IMG/VR virus record: IMGVR_UViG_3300031998_000003
Coordinates: 96,001-160,000 of that record
Strand: one strand, 5' to 3'
DNA length: 64,000 bases
From: a virus
Lineage: Duplodnaviria; Caudoviricetes
The notes beneath the pieces were generated by a model, which worked only from the letters and a program-made list of their open reading frames with translations, was not told where the DNA came from and searched no databases. Shown here piece by piece: positions 7,365-28,830 of the stretch; within the stretch, counting starts at the first letter, position 1, and every line of letters starts with the position of its first letter. Both the position numbers and the translations under genes were made by a program.

Positions 7365-8738
7365 CTAGAATTTTGAGCTCTTACCGTGAAGATCAGCCAA
7401 CAGCGTTTGGATATACAGTTGGTTCACAGTAATGATGAGCCGATATGTGTGAGCGTAATCAACGTTTTTGAATATCAATGTTCTGGTTTCCCAATCCATA
7501 TAATATCCTTCGTCGATTATCGTTCGGTTTTCACGGAGATGAACATTGATGAACAATTCAGGATTCATCTTGTTCTGCAGGTGGTAATCAAGAACCTCAT
7601 TCAATGTCTGTCCAAGACACGAATCGATATTGACCTCACGTTCGTCCCAATCGAGTTTGACAATTGGTTTTGCCCAGATCTTCCAGCCATACAATAGCGG
7701 AAAATCTTTCTCGTTGAAACAATCGGAGAATATCGGTATGGCGATTCCAGTCGACGGAGTCGTGACGTCCCTGAACGGTCCCGGATTCGGAACCGATAGA
7801 TCGAACATTCCGATGGTGTTGAACTCAACACTGATCGTGAATGTAATTGGGCAATCCGTCTCTGTCTGTCCCACCTTATTTACAGCGTCATAGCGCAGAT
7901 CATGAAACCTGCACAGAAGTGACGTCATGTAGTTTGCATAGAATCCATCACGATGTTTTCCAGATGAGAATCTGTACGAGATCGGATAGACACTATTCAT
8001 ATTGAGATAGTCAACAAACCTGGACACATCACCAGATTCTGTTTTGACAGGAATCTTAGCATACCTTGCAGTCTCATTCAAGAAACCGTCAGGAATGGCT
8101 AACTCCAATGCTGTGTCGATGTCGAATGGACGATTTTCATCCGTGGGAATCTTGTTGATCAGATAGGACGCCCAACGAATCTGTTCCGTAATAGAACGGA
8201 AAGCCAACACGAAATCGAAATACATGATAACGCGATTGATCTTTCCTCTCCATTCGATCCCATTCCGTTTGTCGAAGAATAACTTCTCCATCTCGGAGCG
8301 ATTCTGAAACCGGTTTGAAGTGGTCGACCAAAGCGTTGTCGCATATGATCCCGCGGCCAGGCGATTATCCAGACCGGACAGAGATACTCTAGGATTTACA
8401 ACACAGATTGGATACGGTTGTGTGCGGATTTGTTTTGGTGTATGTCGGAGTTGACGATGCGCAATCCTGGTGGAAGGTAGCGCAGTCTGGAACGTTTCCG
8501 ACGGGAATTGATCCAGGATGAACTGTAACATGACAGCTGTTACATTTCCAACGGTGTGAGCCATATCGGTTCCTGACTGACAAGCTAAGGATAATGTGTA
8601 TCCATGCTCTAAACCTCTACGGGAAAGTCCGTTGAATACGTAATTAATTCCTGGAGTTGTGATATTGCGATCGGTGATTCCCTCATTGAAGTTATTCTCA
8701 CCTACTCTGTTAGGGTGTTCATCATTATAATGTGTCAT
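7365..8738 (-). CDS. putative virion structural protein
   Basis: Long ORF in the structural cluster; start overlaps the upstream gene stop; GAGGTG RBS. Confidence 0.55.
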   Translation of the reverse strand: MTHYNDEHPNRVGENNFNEGITDRNITTPGINYVFNGLSRRGLEHGYTLSLACQSGTDMAHTVGNVTAVMLQFILDQFPSETFQTALPSTRIAHRQLRHTPKQIRTQPYPICVVNPRVSLSGLDNRLAAGSYATTLWSTTSNRFQNRSEMEKLFFDKRNGIEWRGKINRVIMYFDFVLAFRSITEQIRWASYLINKIPTDENRPFDIDTALELAIPDGFLNETARYAKIPVKTESGDVSRFVDYLNMNSVYPISYRFSSGKHRDGFYANYMTSLLCRFHDLRYDAVNKVGQTETDCPITFTISVEFNTIGMFDLSVPNPGPFRDVTTPSTGIAIPIFSDCFNEKDFPLLYGWKIWAKPIVKLDWDEREVNIDSCLGQTLNEVLDYHLQNKMNPELFINVHLRENRTIIDEGYYMDWETRTLIFKNVDYAHTYRLIITVNQLYIQTLLADLHGKSSKF

Positions 8739-12110: not shown

Positions 12111-13049
12111 ATGAAAGAGGGTGATGAGTTGGATATTTTGGAATTCAAACGAAGATTACTTGATACAGGATTATTTAAGAAAGCTACAAATGGATGGTAT
12201 CGAACAAAGACATGTCCGTATTGTGGCGATACAAAAGAACACATGTATTTGTGTATCAATCCAGGTAGTCCGAATCCAATTGGATACCATTGTTTCAAAT
12301 GTCATAGCAAAGGACTATTGAAACAGGACTTTCTTGAGTATTACGGAATCAACATGAAAATCCCATATATAAAAGGACGCAATCGATTACAGCATGCTTC
12401 ACCGAATGAACTGATCGGTGAATTGATTGATCCAGATAAACATATGGGTGTCATTTTGATGTGTCAGGAATACTTCGAAAAGAGACTGGGTGTTATCCCG
12501 AGCATCCAAGATTTGAAAGCATTCCAATTAATCGGTGATCCTGAGTCATTCGTTCGATCATATATCGGAGGTGATGCTTGGGGATTAAAAGACCGGTTAT
12601 GGTTTATGATGAGCAATGGTGGAATGGCTGGACGAAGTATTGACGACAATGTATCTCTTCGTTGGAGAAAACGCACGCGTGAAGATATGAAGGGTGGCAT
12701 GTATAGTATCAAAGTTCCCATTGCTACAGACAAACCTATTGTTGTTTGTGTCTGTGAAGGCATATTGGATGCAATTGGTCTATATTATCACTGCGATATT
12801 CCGAACGCAGCATACATTGCATGCATGGGTTCCGACTATGTCAACGGTATCAAATATGCTATCGATATGGGAGTCTTCGGTGATTCTGTATCCGTCCATA
12901 TCTATAAAGATTCGGATGTGAATTTTGTGAAGATTCCAAAGAAGTATTCTCAATTGTTCAAGTCGGTTTCTGTTTATCGGAATTCAATGGCCAAGGATTT
13001 CGGTGTCAAAAAGGAACTGATTGAACTGGAGAAAACTCAAACAATTTAA
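12111..13049 (+). CDS. DNA primase (Zn finger + TOPRIM)
   Basis: CPYCGD...H...YHCFKC zinc finger; VCEGILDA TOPRIM motif; DSD. Confidence 0.85.
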   Translation: MKEGDELDILEFKRRLLDTGLFKKATNGWYRTKTCPYCGDTKEHMYLCINPGSPNPIGYHCFKCHSKGLLKQDFLEYYGINMKIPYIKGRNRLQHASPNELIGELIDPDKHMGVILMCQEYFEKRLGVIPSIQDLKAFQLIGDPESFVRSYIGGDAWGLKDRLWFMMSNGGMAGRSIDDNVSLRWRKRTREDMKGGMYSIKVPIATDKPIVVCVCEGILDAIGLYYHCDIPNAAYIACMGSDYVNGIKYAIDMGVFGDSVSVHIYKDSDVNFVKIPKKYSQLFKSVSVYRNSMAKDFGVKKELIELEKTQTI

Positions 13050-13060
13050 GGAGGATGTAT

Positions 13061-13849
13061 ATGATTAATGATGAATGGGAAGCACTGCTGAGAGATCAGC
13101 GTGGACCGATATGCAATCATATGTTGGGATGCTATATTGGTAAAAAGATTCGTGAGCAGCGCGGAACGCTTGAGAAACATATCAAACAGCGTGACGACGT
13201 CGCATCACAGTTTGGTGATGAATACACTGATCGTCTGAATGATAAGATTAGAAGAACGATTTCCGAGATCGCGATGTTGAAAGCATTGGAATCTAGAGTT
13301 CGTGTGTTGGATGAATTCGTCACACATGAAATCATCGAAGGATTTCAATTGACCTTTATCGGTAATGGTGGAGGTATACTCAATGAGCCATGTCATGGAC
13401 TGCTGGCCAATGAATATTCATCCGCATTCTGGAGACCGTCAACCAAGGTTGAAAAGTATGTCCCGCGGTTTAAAGAGGAAGCGAAAAAGCCGGACGAACG
13501 CGGTGTGTACATTACAATCGCAAGAAACGACTGGAGTTATGCACGTGACTACACCGGGAGACTTGAAGTTGAATTCTGTTTCTCGGATGCGTCACGTTTC
13601 ACTTTGTTTGACGCTACGCTGAGTAAAAAGGGTTTTGAGTTCTCAGAGCGTGAAAATCCCACAGACTCGATTATGCCAATCAAGCGTGATGAGTATGAGA
13701 TCGCGTTGTTCCTCTATATGCGGAAAACTATCCATGAGAAACTCACGAAGTTCTTTGAGAACATCGCGGATGACTGGTGGACGGTTTCTGATGATGAGTT
13801 CTATCACTGCAAAGACGACGTCATGATTGAATACAATATCAAACTTTGA
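13061..13849 (+). CDS. hypothetical protein
   Basis: AAGGAGG RBS, operon context. Confidence 0.7.
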   Translation: MINDEWEALLRDQRGPICNHMLGCYIGKKIREQRGTLEKHIKQRDDVASQFGDEYTDRLNDKIRRTISEIAMLKALESRVRVLDEFVTHEIIEGFQLTFIGNGGGILNEPCHGLLANEYSSAFWRPSTKVEKYVPRFKEEAKKPDERGVYITIARNDWSYARDYTGRLEVEFCFSDASRFTLFDATLSKKGFEFSERENPTDSIMPIKRDEYEIALFLYMRKTIHEKLTKFFENIADDWWTVSDDEFYHCKDDVMIEYNIKL

Positions 13850-15178: not shown

Positions 15179-15219
15179 ATGGCATAGTGGAATATACAAA
15201 CACTATTGTTGAATGCCGA

Positions 15220-15257
15220 ATGGTTCCTGCAGCCGATAAGTGCAGGAGAAACGGAGG
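15220..15257 (+). promoter_or_regulatory. conserved 5-prime leader hairpin abutting the SD (copy 1)
   Basis: TCCTGCA-GCCGATAAG-TGCAGGA; near-identical copy at 40466 with a compensatory base pair. Confidence 0.7.
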
Positions 15258-15264
15258 AATCATT

Positions 15265-17079
15265 ATGACTATCGAAGAAATCAAAGCAAAACAGAGTGAG
15301 CTTATGATCAAACATGCAAAGCTCGGATGCGAAATTCTTGGAAAGGAGGTATGTGCTGAAATTTCTCAATGGAGAGATGCTGGTATTGAACTTTCACAGA
15401 ATATTTCTGACAGATCTCAGCAGCAGCTGATGTCGGTTATCAATGCTGATACGATTCTGAAGAACCTTTCAAGTATGGATGCATCCATTTTGGAAGGCGC
15501 TGTAGATCTTGATAAGGTTAGACAGAATGCAGATCAGCTGAAGAACAATATTGAGTCTGATCTCAACAATTGGGAACTCATTCTTCATGCACTTTTTGCG
15601 CTTTCATGTATCGATGAAAATGAGCCTGTTCAGAAGCCAGATCCTCAGCCAAAGCCGGCCAATGAATCGATCAATACCGATAAAAACGATTCACCGAAGG
15701 GTGATTTCATTGATCCAGAACTTGCCAAAGTTATATTGGATTCAATTGACAATATCGTTGATAATATGTCAAAAGGTAACGAGATGCCTGCTGGTTGGGA
15801 ATGGCTTGATGTTTATCATATTAACCCAAAGCTGCAGCGCAACAGATACATTGTCAACAATGAAACTGAAGAGGTTGTCGACACGGTGACCGGCTATCAA
15901 GTTGAGTCAAAGGTGTTCAAAGATGGCGAGAAGCTTCTCTTCAAAACAATCGACAGAAATGTTGTTTATGTCCGTAAAAGCCTGATATTTACGGCTAAAG
16001 AAACCGAAACAAAACCGAGCAAACCAGCTTGTTCACTTGTATCATCCAAGATGCTCGACTGGAATTCTCGCATAGATAAAACCCGATATCGTATCTATGC
16101 GGATGGACGTATCGAGGATACCAAAACAGATACATTTCTGAAACCGATTGATGGATGTTCCGTAGCACTTGAAACCGTCAACCGAGGTAAAGGCATGTGG
16201 TTAATCCACGAACTGGTATGGGCTGCTTTCCATCCAGAGGATCTTCCCAACATTCGGAAAACCGGGAATGTATACCGTATAAATGGCCGAGTTGATGATA
16301 ACAGACTGTCTAATCTGATCTTCAAAGTGAATGTGGTGTCTTCAACAATGACACACAACAAAATGAATACTCCAGCCGAAACAAAGACTGATGGTGATGA
16401 TACTTTGAAAGAAGTACCGAAAGCCACAAAACAGTCTATCGAAGAAAAGAAACCGAAAATTGAATATAGATGCATTGACTGGATTCCTGGGATCGACGGC
16501 TCGAGATATTCGATCACGAGAGATGGTACAGTCGTTGACAATCGGTATAGAGCCAAGCCAGTTGTGCCGAAAATGCTCAACGGCAAACGTGTTGTCAAGC
16601 TGCTCGGAAAACGAAACAAGACCGCGACTTACACAATTGCTGACTTGTTAAATCGTGCATTCCCGGATCAGCCACAGGCGGTTCGTTCGTCTGGTAAATT
16701 CCGGATCGAGGATGTCACTAGACCCCTTGACCGCAAAACAGTTGCGTCAAAAGAAACATCTGAACGGATGATTCCTGTTGATTGGATTGACGGTATTCCT
16801 TCGACAAAATATTTGGTTTCGGAACAGGGATATGTCTTCAATACCATCAGCGGAAAAAGAATCATCCCGAATGCATCCGGAACAATCAACATGTCGGATT
16901 CAATCAACAGAGGATCACGCAAATTACGGATCCATATGAAAATGGAATCACTGATCTGGAAGGCATTCCATGTGGAAGATCGTCGGCTTGAGAAAGTTTA
17001 CATCGATCATATTGATGGTGATGTAGCAAACTGTGCGATCGAAAATCTGCGCAAGAAAATTGTTGATAGAAAGAGCTGA
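15265..17079 (+). CDS. NUMOD4/HNH-repeat protein, probably degenerate nuclease
   Basis: Four W...RY.I...G.V-like units; HELVWAAF...INGRVDDNRLSNL and IDHIDGDVANCAIENL HNH-like motifs. Confidence 0.65.
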   Translation: MTIEEIKAKQSELMIKHAKLGCEILGKEVCAEISQWRDAGIELSQNISDRSQQQLMSVINADTILKNLSSMDASILEGAVDLDKVRQNADQLKNNIESDLNNWELILHALFALSCIDENEPVQKPDPQPKPANESINTDKNDSPKGDFIDPELAKVILDSIDNIVDNMSKGNEMPAGWEWLDVYHINPKLQRNRYIVNNETEEVVDTVTGYQVESKVFKDGEKLLFKTIDRNVVYVRKSLIFTAKETETKPSKPACSLVSSKMLDWNSRIDKTRYRIYADGRIEDTKTDTFLKPIDGCSVALETVNRGKGMWLIHELVWAAFHPEDLPNIRKTGNVYRINGRVDDNRLSNLIFKVNVVSSTMTHNKMNTPAETKTDGDDTLKEVPKATKQSIEEKKPKIEYRCIDWIPGIDGSRYSITRDGTVVDNRYRAKPVVPKMLNGKRVVKLLGKRNKTATYTIADLLNRAFPDQPQAVRSSGKFRIEDVTRPLDRKTVASKETSERMIPVDWIDGIPSTKYLVSEQGYVFNTISGKRIIPNASGTINMSDSINRGSRKLRIHMKMESLIWKAFHVEDRRLEKVYIDHIDGDVANCAIENLRKKIVDRKS

Positions 17080-17089
17080 CGTTTCATCT

Positions 17090-17123
17090 GAGAACCCCGC
17101 GTAAACGGGGTTCTCTTTCTTTA
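17090..17123 (+). terminator. intrinsic terminator
   Basis: GAGAACCCCG-CGTAAA-CGGGGTTCTC followed by TTTCTTT. Confidence 0.65.
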
Positions 17124-17141
17124 AATTTAAGGAGGATAAAT

Positions 17142-18056
17142 ATGATCGCACTTGAGTTGATTAAAAAGCTGATGACAGAATCTGGTATCAAATATCAGAT
17201 CCAATCACATCATGAATTATCCAAATTCGGGAGAATCCATCATGTGATTGTCACCAATAACCCAGATGCCGATGCAATGAAACTCGATGATTTTGTCGAA
17301 AGATCCGTCGATGAATATCACGAATACATCGCTGATGTCAAAGCTGCTGTAACCGCGGCTGTCCGAAGTGGTGGTTGGGTATCAAACCAGATCATTCTTT
17401 TCTCGGATACTGCATTATTGCAGCTTCGTGAACTGTCTGGCCTGGCGAAAACGCTGGACGACGATTATTTCATCATCTCGTTCGCTGAACAGACATCTGA
17501 AACGACCGGTTTGAGACAGTTCGTGCAGCCTGTGATATCCGTCATTGACATTTCGGAAGAAGAGCCGATCAACTTGATTGCCTTCGAAAATCTGAAATTC
17601 ATTGTCAAAAATGTCGGATACAATTGTTACTATTCTGCATACGATATCCTGGATATGATGTCAATCGGCAACCAGGTAACGCTGACCAAAGAATCAAATT
17701 ATTACTCACTATCCGACATAAAACAGGAATGTATGTCTAGCATTTATGAATATCAATGTCTGGAGTTCTGGTCGAATATCCGGATTGATCCGAAACTGGA
17801 TATGCATGATATCGACCAGATTCTGATTGAGGCTAATCAGAAATTGTCTGAGCAGGAAATATTCACATGCAAGTCCTGTGGAAAACATTATACTATTTCA
17901 GAAGACGAACGGAAATGGTATGCCGATAGGAAGTTCAATCTCCCGAAGAAGTGTTCTTCATGTCGGTATGATGAACGCAGAAAACGTCGGGATGCCGAAC
18001 GTGCTGCGGAGATGAAAGAGATGTATCAGGAACTTGGGTTCGGCGTTCTTGATTGA
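17142..18056 (+). CDS. protein with C-terminal zinc ribbon (zf-trcl-like)
   Basis: FTCKSCGKHYTISEDERKWYADRKFNLPKKCSSCR. Confidence 0.7.
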   Translation: MIALELIKKLMTESGIKYQIQSHHELSKFGRIHHVIVTNNPDADAMKLDDFVERSVDEYHEYIADVKAAVTAAVRSGGWVSNQIILFSDTALLQLRELSGLAKTLDDDYFIISFAEQTSETTGLRQFVQPVISVIDISEEEPINLIAFENLKFIVKNVGYNCYYSAYDILDMMSIGNQVTLTKESNYYSLSDIKQECMSSIYEYQCLEFWSNIRIDPKLDMHDIDQILIEANQKLSEQEIFTCKSCGKHYTISEDERKWYADRKFNLPKKCSSCRYDERRKRRDAERAAEMKEMYQELGFGVLD

Positions 18057-18108
18057 CTCCACTGATTATAATTTGTCCATATGTACAACATGTATGTATG
18101 GGCAATAT

Positions 18109-18190
18109 GCTGGTATGATGGAATTGGCAGACGTGACGGACTCAAAATCTGTTGTCTTCGGACGTGTGGGTTCAAGTCCCACTACCAGCA
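18109..18190 (+). tRNA. tRNA-Leu(CAA)
   Basis: Full type II cloverleaf; anticodon arm ACGGA-CTCAAAA-TCTGT. Confidence 0.93.
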
Positions 18191-18191
18191 C

Positions 18192-18276
18192 TCATCACAG
18201 GAGATGAGAGGTTCCAGCACCTCTTCGCGGTCCCTCAATGAAACTGCGTAGTTTAAGGGTAAAACCCCTGTGTTGA
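18192..18276 (+). ncRNA. circularly permuted tRNA-like RNA (YrlA/Y-RNA-like topology)
   Basis: Order T arm, closed acceptor stem, TA, D arm; the two ends pair as the anticodon stem (CACAGG/CCTGTG). Confidence 0.65.
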
Positions 18277-18297
18277 TTCAAGGCGATGCATCGCCTC

Positions 18298-18382
18298 AGA
18301 TATGTGTAGTTGAGACGGTTACAATACCGACAAGGGCGCCCCTTGAGTCGGAGGTCGCAGGTTCGAATCCTGTCACATATCT
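18298..18382 (+). ncRNA. tRNA-like RNA with anticodon loop replaced by an extended hairpin
   Basis: AGATATGTG/CACATATCT acceptor, D arm, CCGAC/GTCGG stem enclosing AAGGGCGCCCCTTGA, GGTTCGAATCC T arm. Confidence 0.7.
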
Positions 18383-18390
18383 TCAAGATT

Positions 18391-18485
18391 GAGTTTCGTA
18401 TATGCTGGATGGCAGAAGCAGCCGGTTGAACGTTCCCGGTGAGCCACATGAGGGCTTCGTAGGTTCGAATCCTACAACGAAACTC
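18391..18485 (+). ncRNA. type II tRNA-like RNA with a 10-nt non-canonical anticodon loop
   Basis: GAGTTTCGT/ACGAAACTC acceptor, TGCT/AGCA D stem, GCCGG-TTGAACGTTC-CCGGT, variable arm, canonical T arm. Confidence 0.7.
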
Positions 18486-18493
18486 TGATCTTG

Positions 18494-18569
18494 AAATACG
18501 CGTAGCTGGGTTGGTTACAGCGCCCGGGCGCACCTGGGAGTACGTGGGTTCGAATCTCACCGCGTATTT
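18494..18569 (+). ncRNA. tRNA-like RNA with shortened anticodon loop
   Basis: AAATACGCG/CGCGTATTT acceptor, GCTG/CAGC D stem, CCCGGG-CGCA-CCTGGG, GTGGG-TTCGAAT-CTCAC. Confidence 0.7.
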
Positions 18570-18591
18570 TTTATTTGAAAGGAGGATCGAT

Positions 18592-18903
18592 ATGATCCGT
18601 GTACATGCATTGAAACATGGTGATTACAATAATCAGCTTCCCGCAACGGGATGGATCTATTTACATGGAGAACTTCAGGAAGAAGCCGGTTTCGATTTGT
18701 GTCATATCGATCAAGTTCCTGAAGAAGAAGGTATCTACGATTGTGAAGTAATCCTACCGAATCATGATACCAGACAATGTAAGCTATACTACTGGAAATC
18801 AAGGCGTAGGAAGATCGATCGTGGATTGATTGTATTGGCCAATCATCCAGGTGACAATAAGTTTGCTGAGATAAAATTCAGAATTCGTTCTGACGGATTG
18901 TAA
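18592..18903 (+). CDS. hypothetical protein
   Basis: AAGGAGG RBS before MIRVHA. Confidence 0.7.
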   Translation: MIRVHALKHGDYNNQLPATGWIYLHGELQEEAGFDLCHIDQVPEEEGIYDCEVILPNHDTRQCKLYYWKSRRRKIDRGLIVLANHPGDNKFAEIKFRIRSDGL

Positions 18904-18916
18904 AGGAGATGATGAT

Positions 18917-19333
18917 ATGTCAAGTGTATATGGTGGACCTGCAGATGCAAAGCTTGAAAACGAGCTTTCTGAACCGGAAGGCGACCTGGATTGTGGTACG
19001 TCGAAAACATCTGATGACTATCGAAAATTCCGCCAGATTCAGTTCCATATGTATTGGGATGCTAGAAGCAGAACCATTCAAGAACCTGACAATATCGACA
19101 TGAAGATCTTGTATGATCTGAAACCTGAGGATCTTCTGGTTGTATATTTTGACACAAAAGATCATGGCGTCCCTGGGTTAAAACCAGATGTTATCCGCGA
19201 AGTTATGCACCAACTCAGTGAGAAGTACAAATGTAAGGTTGTTGCATTACCGTATGCAACGATGATTGCTCGGGAAGACAAAGAGACATTCACGAAGCGA
19301 CTTCAAGAGCTTATTAAATATCTCGAAGAATAA
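18917..19333 (+). CDS. hypothetical protein
   Basis: AAGGAG RBS. Confidence 0.7.
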   Translation: MSSVYGGPADAKLENELSEPEGDLDCGTSKTSDDYRKFRQIQFHMYWDARSRTIQEPDNIDMKILYDLKPEDLLVVYFDTKDHGVPGLKPDVIREVMHQLSEKYKCKVVALPYATMIAREDKETFTKRLQELIKYLEE

Positions 19334-19489
19334 CAGTAAATTGAGAGCGGTTGGCTTCGGCGTGAACTGTGGATTTATTGTCATAATGGAACTAATTCGA
19401 GCGGGGAGTATCGACTGCCATGCTTTGATCCCTTGGAAATAGATGGATTGTCCGATATTAGATCCTTTGAAGTTATGGTGTAAATTCGT

Positions 19490-19624
19490 ATTATTAATGT
19501 ATGCAAGTGGTCATAAGCAACCCATGTAGGGTATGAGCTTCCACACAATGTTCCGGCCGGGACTTATGTAAAACTCGCAATTGCGAGCGGGGGCTACGCG
19601 GGTTCGAATCCCGCCATTAATAAT
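19490..19624 (+). ncRNA. tRNA-like RNA with a large multi-hairpin insertion in place of the anticodon loop
   Basis: ATTATTAATG/CATTAATAAT acceptor, TGC-AAGTGGTCATAA-GCA D arm, GCGGG-TTCGAAT-CCCGC T arm. Confidence 0.65.
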
Positions 19625-19691
19625 AAGCTCGACAAAGTGAAATCAATCATGAAGGGTCCGACGCCTTCATGCATCGGATATATTGATATAT

Positions 19692-19765
19692 CGGGATGTG
19701 GTGAAGTTTGGTATCACGCCACTTTTGGGAAGTGGAAGCCCAGGGTTCGAATCCCTGCATTCCGA
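19692..19765 (+). tRNA. tRNA-Pro(TGG)
   Basis: Cloverleaf; CCACT-TTTGGGA-AGTGG. Confidence 0.92.
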
Positions 19766-19820
19766 GTAAAAGGCACGTACAGCAATTCTAACGAATGAAT
19801 ATGATCGTTTGTGCCTTGTA

Positions 19821-19898
19821 GGTGAAGTAGCTCAGGTGGTAGAGCGTCGGGAGTGTAACTCCTGCAGGGATGTCAGGTTCGAGACCTAACCTTCACCA
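19821..19898 (+). tRNA. atypical tRNA, GTA (Tyr) anticodon, possibly non-functional
   Basis: GGTGAAG/CTTCACC acceptor, normal D arm, CGGGA-GTGTAAC-TCCTG; extra spacer base, mismatched T stem, no long variable arm. Confidence 0.5.
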
Positions 19899-19904
19899 TC
19901 ATTC

Positions 19905-20315
19905 CACATCAAAAGAGTAATTTCAAAAGCCGCATCCTGGAAGGGTCCAGGATGGGTAAGCTTTACCAAGGAAACCGTTGCAGTGCACAAGGATAAGAGT
20001 AATGTAGATATGCTGCAGTTCCTAGTATCGGACGGGTACGAAACCTTGGTTGCGTCATGGGCGCTAGTAAGACGCGCTCTGCCGAAATGAGCCTAAACGT
20101 AAAGCCATAGTCGAAAGGATTCATGTTTACTGCATATCTTGGACATGAATCGCAAAGTAGCTGGTAGGAAAAGGATGATACGGCATATTCCCCTAGTAGT
20201 GGCGAGCGAAAAGGGATCCACAAAAGAGCATGGGGAGCCATAGCTCCGAACACGTGCTTGCGAGTGGTTAAAAACGCCCTGGAACGGGTATGGACGGTTA
20301 TGAAATTTTGATGTG
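19905..20315 (+). ncRNA. large ornate ncRNA with 23S rRNA domain I-like helices
   Basis: Ends pair (CACATCAAAA..AATTTCA..AGCCG / CGGTT..TGAAATT-TTGATGTG); many internal stems; CCCCTAGTAGTGGCGAGCGAAAAGGG. Confidence 0.7.
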
Positions 20316-20402
20316 AGATATGACAATGACTGTGAATTGTTCCAGACTATTTGGTTAGCGCGGGATCAGAAACGGGTTCACCAGAATAGTTCATGAGTCT
20401 AG

Positions 20403-20506
20403 ATTGTTGTGTGAGCGGGAACGCACTGGCCACCTAGCGAGCCAGGTATACCGGAGGATTCCGGCGAACATAATTGAAGTGAGACGCATAAATTACACAC
20501 AACAAT
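20403..20506 (+). ncRNA. closed multibranch structured element
   Basis: ATTGTTGTGTG/CACACAACAAT closing stem with CTGGC/GCCAG and CCGGA/TCCGG hairpins. Confidence 0.5.
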
Positions 20507-20507
20507 T

Positions 20508-20596
20508 GGAGTCGAGACGTGATGACCGCAAGGTCAGGTGGTGTGGCGAAAGTGCGCATTCTCGTCGCACAGTGGGTTCGATTCCCACACGGCTCT
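20508..20596 (+). ncRNA. tRNA-like RNA with a GNRA tetraloop hairpin and long extra arm
   Basis: GGAGTCG/CGGCTCT acceptor-like stem, TGACC-GCAA-GGTCA, GTGTGGCGA/TCGTCGCAC arm, GTGGG-TTCGATT-CCCAC. Confidence 0.6.
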
Positions 20597-20822
20597 TCAG
20601 TATGCTATACAGCATACAGAACCAGAGTCAGGAAGTTCTTTCCTTAACACTAGATCTGTCGACGTGCGTGAATGATGAGAAATACATCAATATATCGGCG
20701 GGATGGACTGACCACAACGTTGGGCTGGATTGAATGAAATGGCGTAGGTCGGACTCGGACATGGGATCCCTATACTGTGTCCGAGAGATCGGTTATAATC
20801 CGGGAAACCGGTTTACATATAT

Positions 20823-20898
20823 GACTCGGTAGCCAAGCGGGAAGGCAGGGGTGTGCAAAACCCTGATACGTCTTGTTCGAATCAGACCCGAGTCTCCA
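20823..20898 (+). tRNA. tRNA-Cys(GCA)
   Basis: GACTCGG/CCGAGTC, GCA anticodon, U discriminator plus CCA; bulge in the T stem. Confidence 0.8.
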
Positions 20899-20899
20899 T

Positions 20900-21069
20900 T
20901 AATCAGTATGATCATAGAGGATAAGGAATGATTCCGTCCAGGTCATATGAAATCGCTGATGTAGTATGATGTTCGCGGTGCCAATTCGGGTGCACACGGT
21001 TGGTTTCTGCCGGATCTGTCGGTCAGGATCACGAGGTTAACTACGGCAGTCTATGAACTATACTGATTA
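20900..21069 (+). ncRNA. about 170-nt structured element between tRNAs
   Basis: TAATCAGTAT..TCATAGA / TCTATGA..ATACTGATTA long closing stem; internal CTG..GTAGT / ACTAC..CAG stem. Confidence 0.55.
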
Positions 21070-21072
21070 TCC

Positions 21073-21148
21073 GATCCATTAGCTCAGTCGGCAGAGCAAA
21101 TGACTGTTAATCATTGGGTCGTAGGTTCAAGTCCTACAGCGGGAGCCA
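21073..21148 (+). tRNA. tRNA-Asn(GTT) with unpaired acceptor stem (chimeric or pseudo)
   Basis: Normal D, anticodon and T arms plus GCCA, but GATCCAT does not pair with AGCGGGA. Confidence 0.65.
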
Positions 21149-21159
21149 ATAAATATTAT

Positions 21160-21199
21160 GAATAAGGGGCGCTTCGGCGCCCCTTATTCTTTTTTTTTT
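21160..21199 (+). terminator. intrinsic terminator ending RNA island 1
   Basis: GAATAAGGGGCGC-TTCG-GCGCCCCTTATTC followed by T10. Confidence 0.85.
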
Positions 21200-27924: not shown

Positions 27925-28830
27925 ATGGTAGGAAAACAGACTGATCGCGAACATCTGAATGAACGTATAGCAGATCTTGAAAAGGTCATCGACATTTTGA
28001 TCGCGCTACGCGATCATCCCGAAATCGGGGAAAAGCAAATTTGTGATGAGAAAGGGATGTCTTTCACTCGCTATCGCAAATTGGCCTACGATACGGACTG
28101 GTTCGGTCCAACAAGATCGGTACATTCCGAAGAAACAACCGCAGAGAAGATGCGTAAGTTCAAGCCAACTCTGTCATGGTATCACAAGTTGTGGTGTGAA
28201 GTTATGGGTGTCGACTACCGTGATGTCACGGTATGTCCGACTGACATTGCTGAAACAATTGAATGGTTACTCGCTAACAAGCTCAATGAGCGCGAGGCAA
28301 AAGTGATTCGTCTCCGTTATGAAGACGGAATGATACTCATGGACATCGGCCATGAAATGGGAGTAACTGGAGACAGAATTGCACAGATTGAAGCCACAGC
28401 ATTTCGCAAGCTTAGATGTGCTAATGCTTGGATGCGTTTCGGTAGAAACCATTGGATCCCGATCCTGACGATTCAGAAAAATATTGAAGCCGACGCTGAG
28501 ATCTCCATAAAATATCGGGTTATGGCAGCATTGGATGACAGGATGCCTTCTCTGAGAAAGTATATCAGAGATGGTATTAAACTGGAAGAACAACAAAGAA
28601 CACAGATCGATCCGGACCTGTCGATTGACGATATGGATTTGTCGGTCAGAACATACAATTCCCTGAAACGCGGAGGAGTTCAAACTCTCGACGACCTCAG
28701 GCACATGACTGCGAGTGACCTTATGAAGATCCGCTGTCTTGGTGCCGGTGGTGTTTGTGAAATAAAAAACAAACTCGATGAATATGGTTTCAGCTTGCTT
28801 CCTGATAATGAAGATGACGATGACGAATAA
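27925..28830 (+). CDS. sigma-70 region 4 + RNAP alpha C-terminal domain fusion
   Basis: LNEREAKVIRLRY...IGHEMGVTGDRIAQIEATAFRKLR and IDDMDLSVRTYNSLKRGGV.TLDDL...LMKIRCLG. Confidence 0.85.
   Translation: MVGKQTDREHLNERIADLEKVIDILIALRDHPEIGEKQICDEKGMSFTRYRKLAYDTDWFGPTRSVHSEETTAEKMRKFKPTLSWYHKLWCEVMGVDYRDVTVCPTDIAETIEWLLANKLNEREAKVIRLRYEDGMILMDIGHEMGVTGDRIAQIEATAFRKLRCANAWMRFGRNHWIPILTIQKNIEADAEISIKYRVMAALDDRMPSLRKYIRDGIKLEEQQRTQIDPDLSIDDMDLSVRTYNSLKRGGVQTLDDLRHMTASDLMKIRCLGAGGVCEIKNKLDEYGFSLLPDNEDDDDE

Follow-up and report, generated by a model that had tools for sequence, protein, structure and literature searches.

Here we describe a structured non-coding RNA of about 410 nucleotides (nt), encoded in the tRNA operon of a phage, in which a close likeness of helices H11-H13 of bacterial 23S rRNA is embedded. 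The window analyzed, that is, the whole 64-kb stretch of DNA whose numbering we use throughout, corresponds to bases 96001-160000 of a 248,669-bp IMG/VR virus record (IMGVR_UViG_3300031998_000003, 92% complete) from a bovine gut metagenome. Within it, positions 19899-20318 form a discrete structured non-coding RNA domain of the phage tRNA operon transcript. Five homologs were found, two on jumbo-phage records (L002 and L018) and three on metagenome contigs (L090, L104, and L107), bringing the number of members to six. The six make up a new family of large RNAs from phage tRNA operons, marked by an embedded rRNA module and absent from both Rfam 15 and the literature searched, where no description of such an RNA turned up.

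A terminal helix of its own closes the element, whose parts are joined by long-range helices and a loop-loop pseudoknot (Table 1). Folded as a single sequence, it is more stable than its shuffled counterparts (z = -2.6; 0 of 100 shuffles as good), and the RNAalifold consensus of the six sequences (alignment A4) comprises 103 pairs. In this consensus 93% of the cells are paired, versus 32-43% in controls with the 3' partner slid 1-3 columns. Double changes occur at 25 pairs (3-8 in the slid controls), 20 of which have no broken cell at all (0-3 in the controls). The best-supported helices are P9 (three pairs doubly changed, none broken), P7, the helix 20226-33/20251-59, and the terminal P1. The 3' sub-domain holds six doubly changed pairs, four of them in the helix just mentioned. 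The 5' domain has 91% column identity in alignment A3, and a model of it (R1) locates one copy per member; because its sequence is almost invariant, its helices are predicted rather than supported by covariation. Next to the closed terminal stem there is a bulge at 19915-19920.

An earlier sequence-only reading of this DNA had proposed paired 5' and 3' ends, a set of nested stems, and a long-range loop-loop pairing, all of which stood up to comparison. The terminal helix is present in six of six members and differs in sequence in L002 (UUUUCAUCA/UGAUGAAAA in A4) and L018 (CUUUUCGAUAUA/UAUAUCGGAAAG). The nested stems all lie where they had been placed (ACCAAGG 19965-71/CCUUGGU 20044-50, CAUCCUGGA/UCCAGGAUG, and GAUUCAUG/CAUGAAUC), and the last two covary. 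Covariation also supports the pairing of 20006-13 with 20132-39, which reads AGAUAUGC/GCAUAUCU in the window, GAUAUGC/GCAUAUC in L002, and AAACAAG/CUUGUUU in L018. Structure conserved in related phages, which had been named as a check, is seen in the fold kept by the five homologs with its 25 doubly changed pairs.

No conserved reading frame runs through the members. The minus-strand open reading frames (ORFs) at 19963-20253 and 20093-20326 were considered as genes and rejected, the longest frame varying from 70 to 135 amino acids (aa) with shifting frames. Each pair of sequences differs by 5-11 indels that are not multiples of 3, and the differences are spread over the codon positions as 84/74/82.

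The likeness to rRNA lies in a module of 62 nt. The best local alignment to the full E. coli 23S rRNA (L070:2969-5873) matches window positions 20166-20216 to 23S nt 213-262 with a score of 48, versus 22.8 ± 2.3 (maximum 34) for 300 dinucleotide shuffles. By blastn against 28 Gb of E. coli genomes, the element matches 23S only. When the whole phage genome is compared with the E. coli rrn operon, the sole match above noise is H13 (30 nt, 41.9 bits, E 6e-4); the other matches stay at or below 31 bits, and a reversed-operon control reaches 30 bits. The 29-mer at 20188-20216 is found unchanged in the 23S genes of 57 genomes belonging to many phyla; as a consensus-type H13, it is uninformative on the host. 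With some natural 23S sequences, the alignment extends over 62 nt (20155-20216), starting from the AAGUA of the H11 3' strand. A covariance model made from 26 real 23S H11-H13 segments only (model R2, alignment A6) gives four homologs 25-30 bits and the window 41.4 bits (E about 3e-8 over 0.5 Mb), the latter score being inflated since most of those 23S sequences were picked for carrying the window's 29-mer. The tests against E. coli alone (alignment and blastn) are free of this selection bias. Together, these results bear out the resemblance to H11-H13 that the sequence-only reading had proposed.

Compared with H11-H13 of bacterial 23S domain I (about 184-264 in model RF02541, E. coli nt ~183-262, with the curated Rfam large-subunit (LSU) structure as reference), 62 nt align and 29 are identical. 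The features retained are the AGUA/GAA S-turn frames, the GGAAAAG junction, the H13 stem, the 2-bp stem with its GGCGA tip, and the single unpaired nucleotide on each side of the 16-nt loop. Across the family, no member deviates from the junction GGAUGAUACG or the AGUA...GAA frame. Unlike in 23S, the position of the tiny H12 is occupied by 20181-20185, the strand forming the long-range P9, the tip of H13 is variable, and the short tip of H11 is replaced by a covarying 8-bp hairpin (20118-20151) whose loop makes the pseudoknot. By inspection of A4, the short stem 20104-07/20162-65 appears equivalent to H11 (CCAG/CUGG in L002 and L090, CACGG/CCGUG in L018), although R2 failed to recover it.

Outside the module, nothing resembles 23S. 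The 5' 262 nt and the 3' 102 nt do no better than the mean of their shuffles when aligned to E. coli or to 48 diverse 23S domain I sequences, in agreement with the earlier statement that the rest is not rRNA, and the other helices of domain I in colinear order (H2-H10 and H14-H25) are not found in the element. A weak likeness to H22 near 20230, suggested alongside, disappears on comparison: the 3' part scores 16 against 23S nt 262-600, and its shuffles score 16.7 ± 2.5. A likeness to the H21 loop (ACACGUG at 20250-56) was dismissed as well, the stretch being helical and covarying. Because the remaining ~350 nt show no above-chance likeness to 23S, the element is, judging by sequence comparison, not a miniature domain I; that an LSU fragment was captured and remodelled is a plausible idea only where the 62-nt module is concerned. 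At gathering score, Rfam finds no rRNA in the 64-kb window, and the lack of an rRNA operon remarked on earlier extends to the whole 249-kb genome.

Known RNA families do not account for the element either. Searched at gathering score and at E <= 10, Rfam returns no family for 19899-20510. The LSU model RF02541 finds no match at gathering score, and none when 19400-20900 is searched with relaxed filters at E <= 10; as a positive control, real E. coli domain I scores 541 bits in the same search. The models of ROOL (RF03087), GOLLD (RF01998), and YrlA (RF02553) remain unmatched even at E <= 10. RNase P RNA, tmRNA, and group I/II introns have no Rfam match in the element, the sole tmRNA-like signal lying upstream at 19597-19614. 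Hence, the recommended comparison with LSU_rRNA_bacteria, GOLLD, ROOL, and RNase P leaves the RNA without an existing family. A boxA antitermination signal of the rrn type is at chance level, with none in the array, and the element does not lie in the 5' untranslated region of a ribosomal protein operon, there being no ribosomal protein gene nearby.

Table 1. Positions of the RNA domain, its parts and neighbors in the window, and exact H13-loop hairpins at loci of other phages
Feature	Position	Strand	Details
tRNA-Tyr(GTA), CCA encoded	19821-19898	+	ARAGORN, Rfam tRNA; 3' end adjoins the element
Structured RNA domain, ~410 nt (main finding)	19899-20318	+	Six-member alignment A4, RNAalifold
P1, closing helix	19905-19914 with 20306-20315	+	CACAUCAAAA / UUUUGAUGUG
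P2 hairpin	19933-19954	+	CAUCCUGGA 19933-41 / UCCAGGAUG 19946-54; length varies among members
5' domain, P3-P6	19965-20050	+	Sequence nearly invariant; no rRNA likeness
Pseudoknot strand 1	20006-20013	+	AGAUAUGC; pairs with 20132-20139
P7, long range	20053-20056 with 20293-20296	+	CGUC/GACG, UGUC/GGCA, UGUG/CACA; double changes at two pairs
P8 hairpin	20059-20079	+	9-nt loop UAGUAAGAC
P9, long range	20080-20084 with 20181-20185	+	UGCCG/CGGCA, UCCCG/CGGGA, GGUCG/CGACC
H11-like arm	20104-20165	+	GCCA 20104-07 / UGGU 20162-65; GAA 20113-15 opposite AGUA 20156-59
Distal hairpin of H11-like arm	20118-25 / 20144-51	+	GAUUCAUG / CAUGAAUC; 8 bp, covaries in all members
Pseudoknot strand 2	20132-20139	+	GCAUAUCU; within 18-nt loop of H11-like hairpin
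23S-like module: H11 3' strand, GGAAAAG junction, H13 hairpin	20155-20216	+	E. coli 23S about nt 203-262
16-nt H13 loop AGUAGUGGCGAGCGAA	20195-20210	+	Exact match; S-turn AGUA/GAA frame, 2-bp stem, GGCGA tip
3' sub-domain closed by CCAC/GUGG	20218-20267	+	Helix 20226-33/20251-59, hairpin 20234-47
Last hairpin, GCCC/GGGU	20276-20289	+	
Second conserved structured RNA block	20320-20510	+	Closing helix 20406-16 / 20496-506; alignment A5
tRNA-like element, 3' bound of downstream block	20514-20595	+	Weak Rfam tRNA-Sec match (22 bits, E 0.16); kept in homologs
Intrinsic terminator, ends tRNA/ncRNA operon	21160-21199	+	13-bp stem (21160-21189) plus T run
Exact H13-loop hairpin	L027:3876-3919		14-bp stem between tRNA-Pro and tRNA-Ser
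Exact H13-loop hairpins, other phages	L041:3335-3372 and L005:14823-14852		

All six copies directly follow a tRNA (Tyr, Met, Pro, Thr, Arg, and Arg), and the three near-complete genomes have one copy each. The two jumbo-phage records (pattern scans) are 277.6 kb (L002, 100% complete) and 262.7 kb (L018, 98% complete). The loci are syntenic though the phages are distant: the RNA of the window shares 92% of its nucleotides with L090, 80% with L002, and 61% with L018, whereas the flanking zf_Tbcl protein is only 25-30% identical in amino acids to those of the same three. Given this difference, the RNA seems either to be under much stronger constraint than the neighboring proteins or to be exchanged as a cassette. 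GenBank phages contain nothing related to the element or its flanking genes, a search for related loci with the 1394-aa neighbor protein found none, and a gapped pattern tolerating variant tips gave no further IMG/VR members. An apparent megaphage distribution (40 metagenome loci, many on human-gut contigs of 400-655 kb) was rejected, as 33 of these loci represent one bacterial coding gene with a chance 21-mer.

Four RNA libraries, taken from four bovine studies, yielded contigs that were placed on 19600-20700. Per library, they cover 19918-20487; 19913-20421; 19918-20108 plus 20156-20375; and 20019-20102 plus 20322-20511, and the flanks of the element and its downstream block are without coverage. 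The depth peaks at 20187-20216 because contigs of genuine 23S share these 30 nt exactly. Two compensatory pairs of changes are present in the library contigs, namely C20062U with G20076A in P8, which recurs in L104 and L107, and G20237A with C20244U in the 3' sub-domain, found in one contig. The pattern fits expression in the rumen as a stable RNA, with the tRNA on its left and the tRNA-like element at 20514 on its right. In three of the studies contigs end at 19913-19918, which hints weakly, at best, at a 5' boundary close to the end of the tRNA. Downstream, the block at 20320-20510 is present at all six loci and has 54 pairs, with 96.6% of cells paired and 8 pairs doubly changed (0-1 in slid controls); no Rfam family matches it. 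Because the contigs bridge 20318/20320, linking the element to this block, and the next ~190 nt are conserved and covarying at all six loci, the expressed unit may be about 610 nt long and consist of two domains.

The H13 loop is not confined to this family. The 16-mer AGUAGYGGCGAGCGAA occurs at 40 IMG/VR loci, a raw count that is meaningless because a reversed control word gives 50. After removal of eight true rRNA pieces and of duplicates, however, 9 of the 30 real hits have a tRNA within 400 nt, versus 0 of the 50 control hits (Fisher p = 6e-5), and at the 10 tRNA-holding loci all tRNAs share the strand of the motif. Three of the real hits have flanking stems of at least 10 bp, which the control lacks altogether. 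The stems (5-14 bp) are unrelated to each other and to 23S, and in the hairpins, as in 23S, a single nucleotide on either side of the 16-mer stays unpaired. Those of L005, L015, L016, L021, L027, and L041 are found within or close to tRNA arrays on the same strand; L008 and L035 also carry such hairpins, with no ARAGORN tRNA at either locus. Rfam finds no family at these other loop-bearing loci. By these counts, about one-third of the hits are a real class of H13-loop hairpins, presumably co-transcribed with phage tRNAs, and the rest are chance matches in coding DNA.

Some of these loci have features of their own. Two jumbo-phage contigs of 201 and 265 kb (L031, minus strand, ~380-560, and L038:950-1110) share a larger RNA in which the H13 loop lies downstream of a conserved stretch, ACGGACAAGGCUNAGGC, that is reminiscent of the CCAAGGCUAAAUAC segment in 23S; this RNA may represent another family containing pieces of domain I. 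In L016, a twister-P5 ribozyme match (12687-12763; 38 bits, just above threshold) and a full tmRNA (13276-13663) each lie a few hundred nt from the H13-loop hairpin. The tRNA array of L005 also contains two adjacent tRNAs with a CTA anticodon (amber readers; 7865-8019), which may point to stop-codon reassignment.

What could a phage gain from a copy of H13? Our preferred reading, held tentatively, is that the RNA is a trans-acting mimic of a host-factor site on 23S rRNA, with bL35 and bL28 as candidate partners. A phage-specific scaffold would display the H13 hairpin and junction, and a host factor whose usual target is this part of 23S or of nascent pre-23S would bind the free RNA instead, which would allow the phage to titrate or recruit that factor and could alter ribosome assembly or ribosomal protein balance during infection. 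In the E. coli 50S subunit, the H13 tip (G248-C249) forms an E-site pocket with the H21 tip and the base of H88; bL35 contacts H13 and H88 at multiple points, and bL28 lines the pocket (PMC13372681). These small basic proteins, with their H13 contacts at the 50S E-site, would be the first candidates. Because the phages encode neither of them, as far as our searches of these phages went, the partner would be a host protein. A short copy of an rRNA site that competes with rRNA for free protein is known from the leaders of ribosomal protein operons (the L1, L10, L20, S8, and S15 operators), and this is the mechanism proposed here. Unlike the phage RNA, which is free-standing and apparently processed, lies in a tRNA operon, and is only proposed to bind a ribosomal protein, those bacterial leaders are cis-acting elements in the 5' untranslated region of the mRNA that encodes the bound protein itself.

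We count in favor of mimicry that the hairpin is identical to natural 23S, that the RNA is conserved, and that the loop is a unit of its own in other arrays; its recurrence there as bare hairpins and the reported presence of bL35 and bL28 at H13 are what make us lean toward recognition in trans. Several observations weigh against it. The H13 tip is not fixed within the family (a 2-nt insertion plus a substitution in L090 and L104, a hairpin insertion of ~16 nt in L107), and this variable tip is the very part reported to face bL35, bL28, and the E-site. L107 is barely detected by R2 (13 bits), and the way its 23S sequences were picked flatters the window's own score. The best-conserved part is the non-rRNA 5' domain, where the main function may reside. 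No bL35, bL28, or Ro60 is encoded by the phages, and the RNA-library contigs are no proof of transcription, strand, or ends. A wider version of the mimicry reading is possible rather than probable: several phage lineages would deploy tRNA-cotranscribed free copies of H13 that capture a host reader of this 50S site (bL35, bL28, or an unknown assembly or defense factor), the copy being mounted here with the H11-H13 junction on an ornate scaffold of ~410-600 nt, as one case of a broader, undescribed mimicry of ribosome pieces by phage non-coding RNAs.

The main rival to mimicry is architectural. The H11-H13 junction with its two S-turns would be a building block of the RNA's own fold, which could be ROOL/GOLLD-like and perhaps self-assembling, with no rRNA-related target; we regard this as possible, if doubtful. 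It would explain why the H12 position forms the covarying P9, why the H11 tip has been swapped for a pseudoknot-making hairpin, why the H13 tip is free to vary, and why conservation peaks in the non-rRNA 5' domain. The setting agrees too: like ROOL and GOLLD, this is a large multi-domain pseudoknotted RNA beside phage tRNA genes, about 600 nt long with the downstream block, and like ROOL it comes from the rumen. On the other hand, it matches neither model even at E <= 10, and we know of no description of an rRNA-derived module in either RNA. For such a role, moreover, a generic S-turn hairpin would suffice, and yet 29 nt are identical to natural 23S, while the bare hairpins on long perfect stems in other tRNA arrays cannot serve a larger fold.

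The remaining explanations fare less well. A sense-strand exact copy of an exposed rRNA hairpin, with stand-alone copies in several phages, might be a decoy that soaks up a host defense ribonuclease, a toxin, or a small molecule of the H13 pocket and so shields ribosomes in infection; the H13 tip is a known ligand site, and its fast change in RNAs that are otherwise 90% identical could reflect an arms race. We consider this unlikely, as we know of no nuclease or toxin targeting H11-H13, none appeared in the literature searched, the ribosomal pocket also needs H21 and H88 (both absent from the phage RNA), and a decoy would be expected to keep its tip given that the host H13 tip is invariant. 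Distinctly improbable is a relic, i.e., a piece of host 23S recombined illegitimately into an existing non-coding RNA gene and carried along as a passenger that has no role itself. The rRNA likeness is limited to 62 nt, the flanks are unrelated, and the sequence is of the common consensus type of H13, all of which would suit such an origin. But the piece is kept in six of six members, in phages whose flanking proteins are only 25-30% identical, its junction and S-turn frame are invariant, the H11-like stem (by inspection of A4) and the P9 beside the H13-like hairpin covary, and the hairpin recurs independently elsewhere. Least probable by far, and already disfavored, is a Y-RNA-type partner of the ring protein Ro60 that carries an rRNA instead of a tRNA look-alike. 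Its closed terminal stem with the adjacent bulge, its phage origin, and its tRNA-array association do recall YrlA and the Y RNAs, translation-RNA mimics on a closed stem. Unlike those, it mimics rRNA rather than tRNA and has no YrlA match, and no TROVE/Ro60 gene was found in three 92-100% complete genomes carrying the element (G000, G001, and G002), in a search that did match the positive-control genomes; a host-encoded Ro60 is possible.

In the genome, the element sits between a tRNA and further RNA genes, in a region of ~3 kb (18100-21150) without credible ORFs where tRNAs and tRNA-like elements all lie on the + strand. The surrounding ORFs encode HNH, zf_Tbcl, unknown, and sigma-like proteins. 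Interspersed with the real tRNAs are elements resembling tRNAs or tmRNA 3' ends without normal anticodon loops (18393-18569, 19570-19629, and 20514-20595), which have odd anticodons according to ARAGORN and weak Rfam matches to tmRNA and tRNA-Sec. Upstream of the array, 15187-18056 encodes a 630-aa HNH-containing protein and a 304-aa treble-clef zinc-finger protein. This pair also precedes the array in L002, L018, L090, and L107 (25-35% identity, except in L107); in L104 neither protein was matched within the fetched locus. Further away, the gene at 27925-28830 joins sigma-70 region 4 and an RNA polymerase alpha C-terminal domain in one 301-aa protein, to which L104 has three paralog-like matches.

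Phage tRNA clusters are already known to harbor large structured RNAs (ROOL, GOLLD, and the T4 stable RNAs). The module described here gives a concrete handle on the function of such RNAs, since its ribosomal counterpart has solved structures and named protein neighbors. If the architectural reading is true, a natural rRNA junction would have been transplanted as a folding module, which is relevant to RNA structure and design. If, instead, the mimic reading is true, free phage RNAs would join the tRNA mimics (Y RNAs and viral tRNA-like structures) and the cis-acting rRNA mimics, and the H13/E-site corner of the 50S subunit would be a point of conflict between phage and host.

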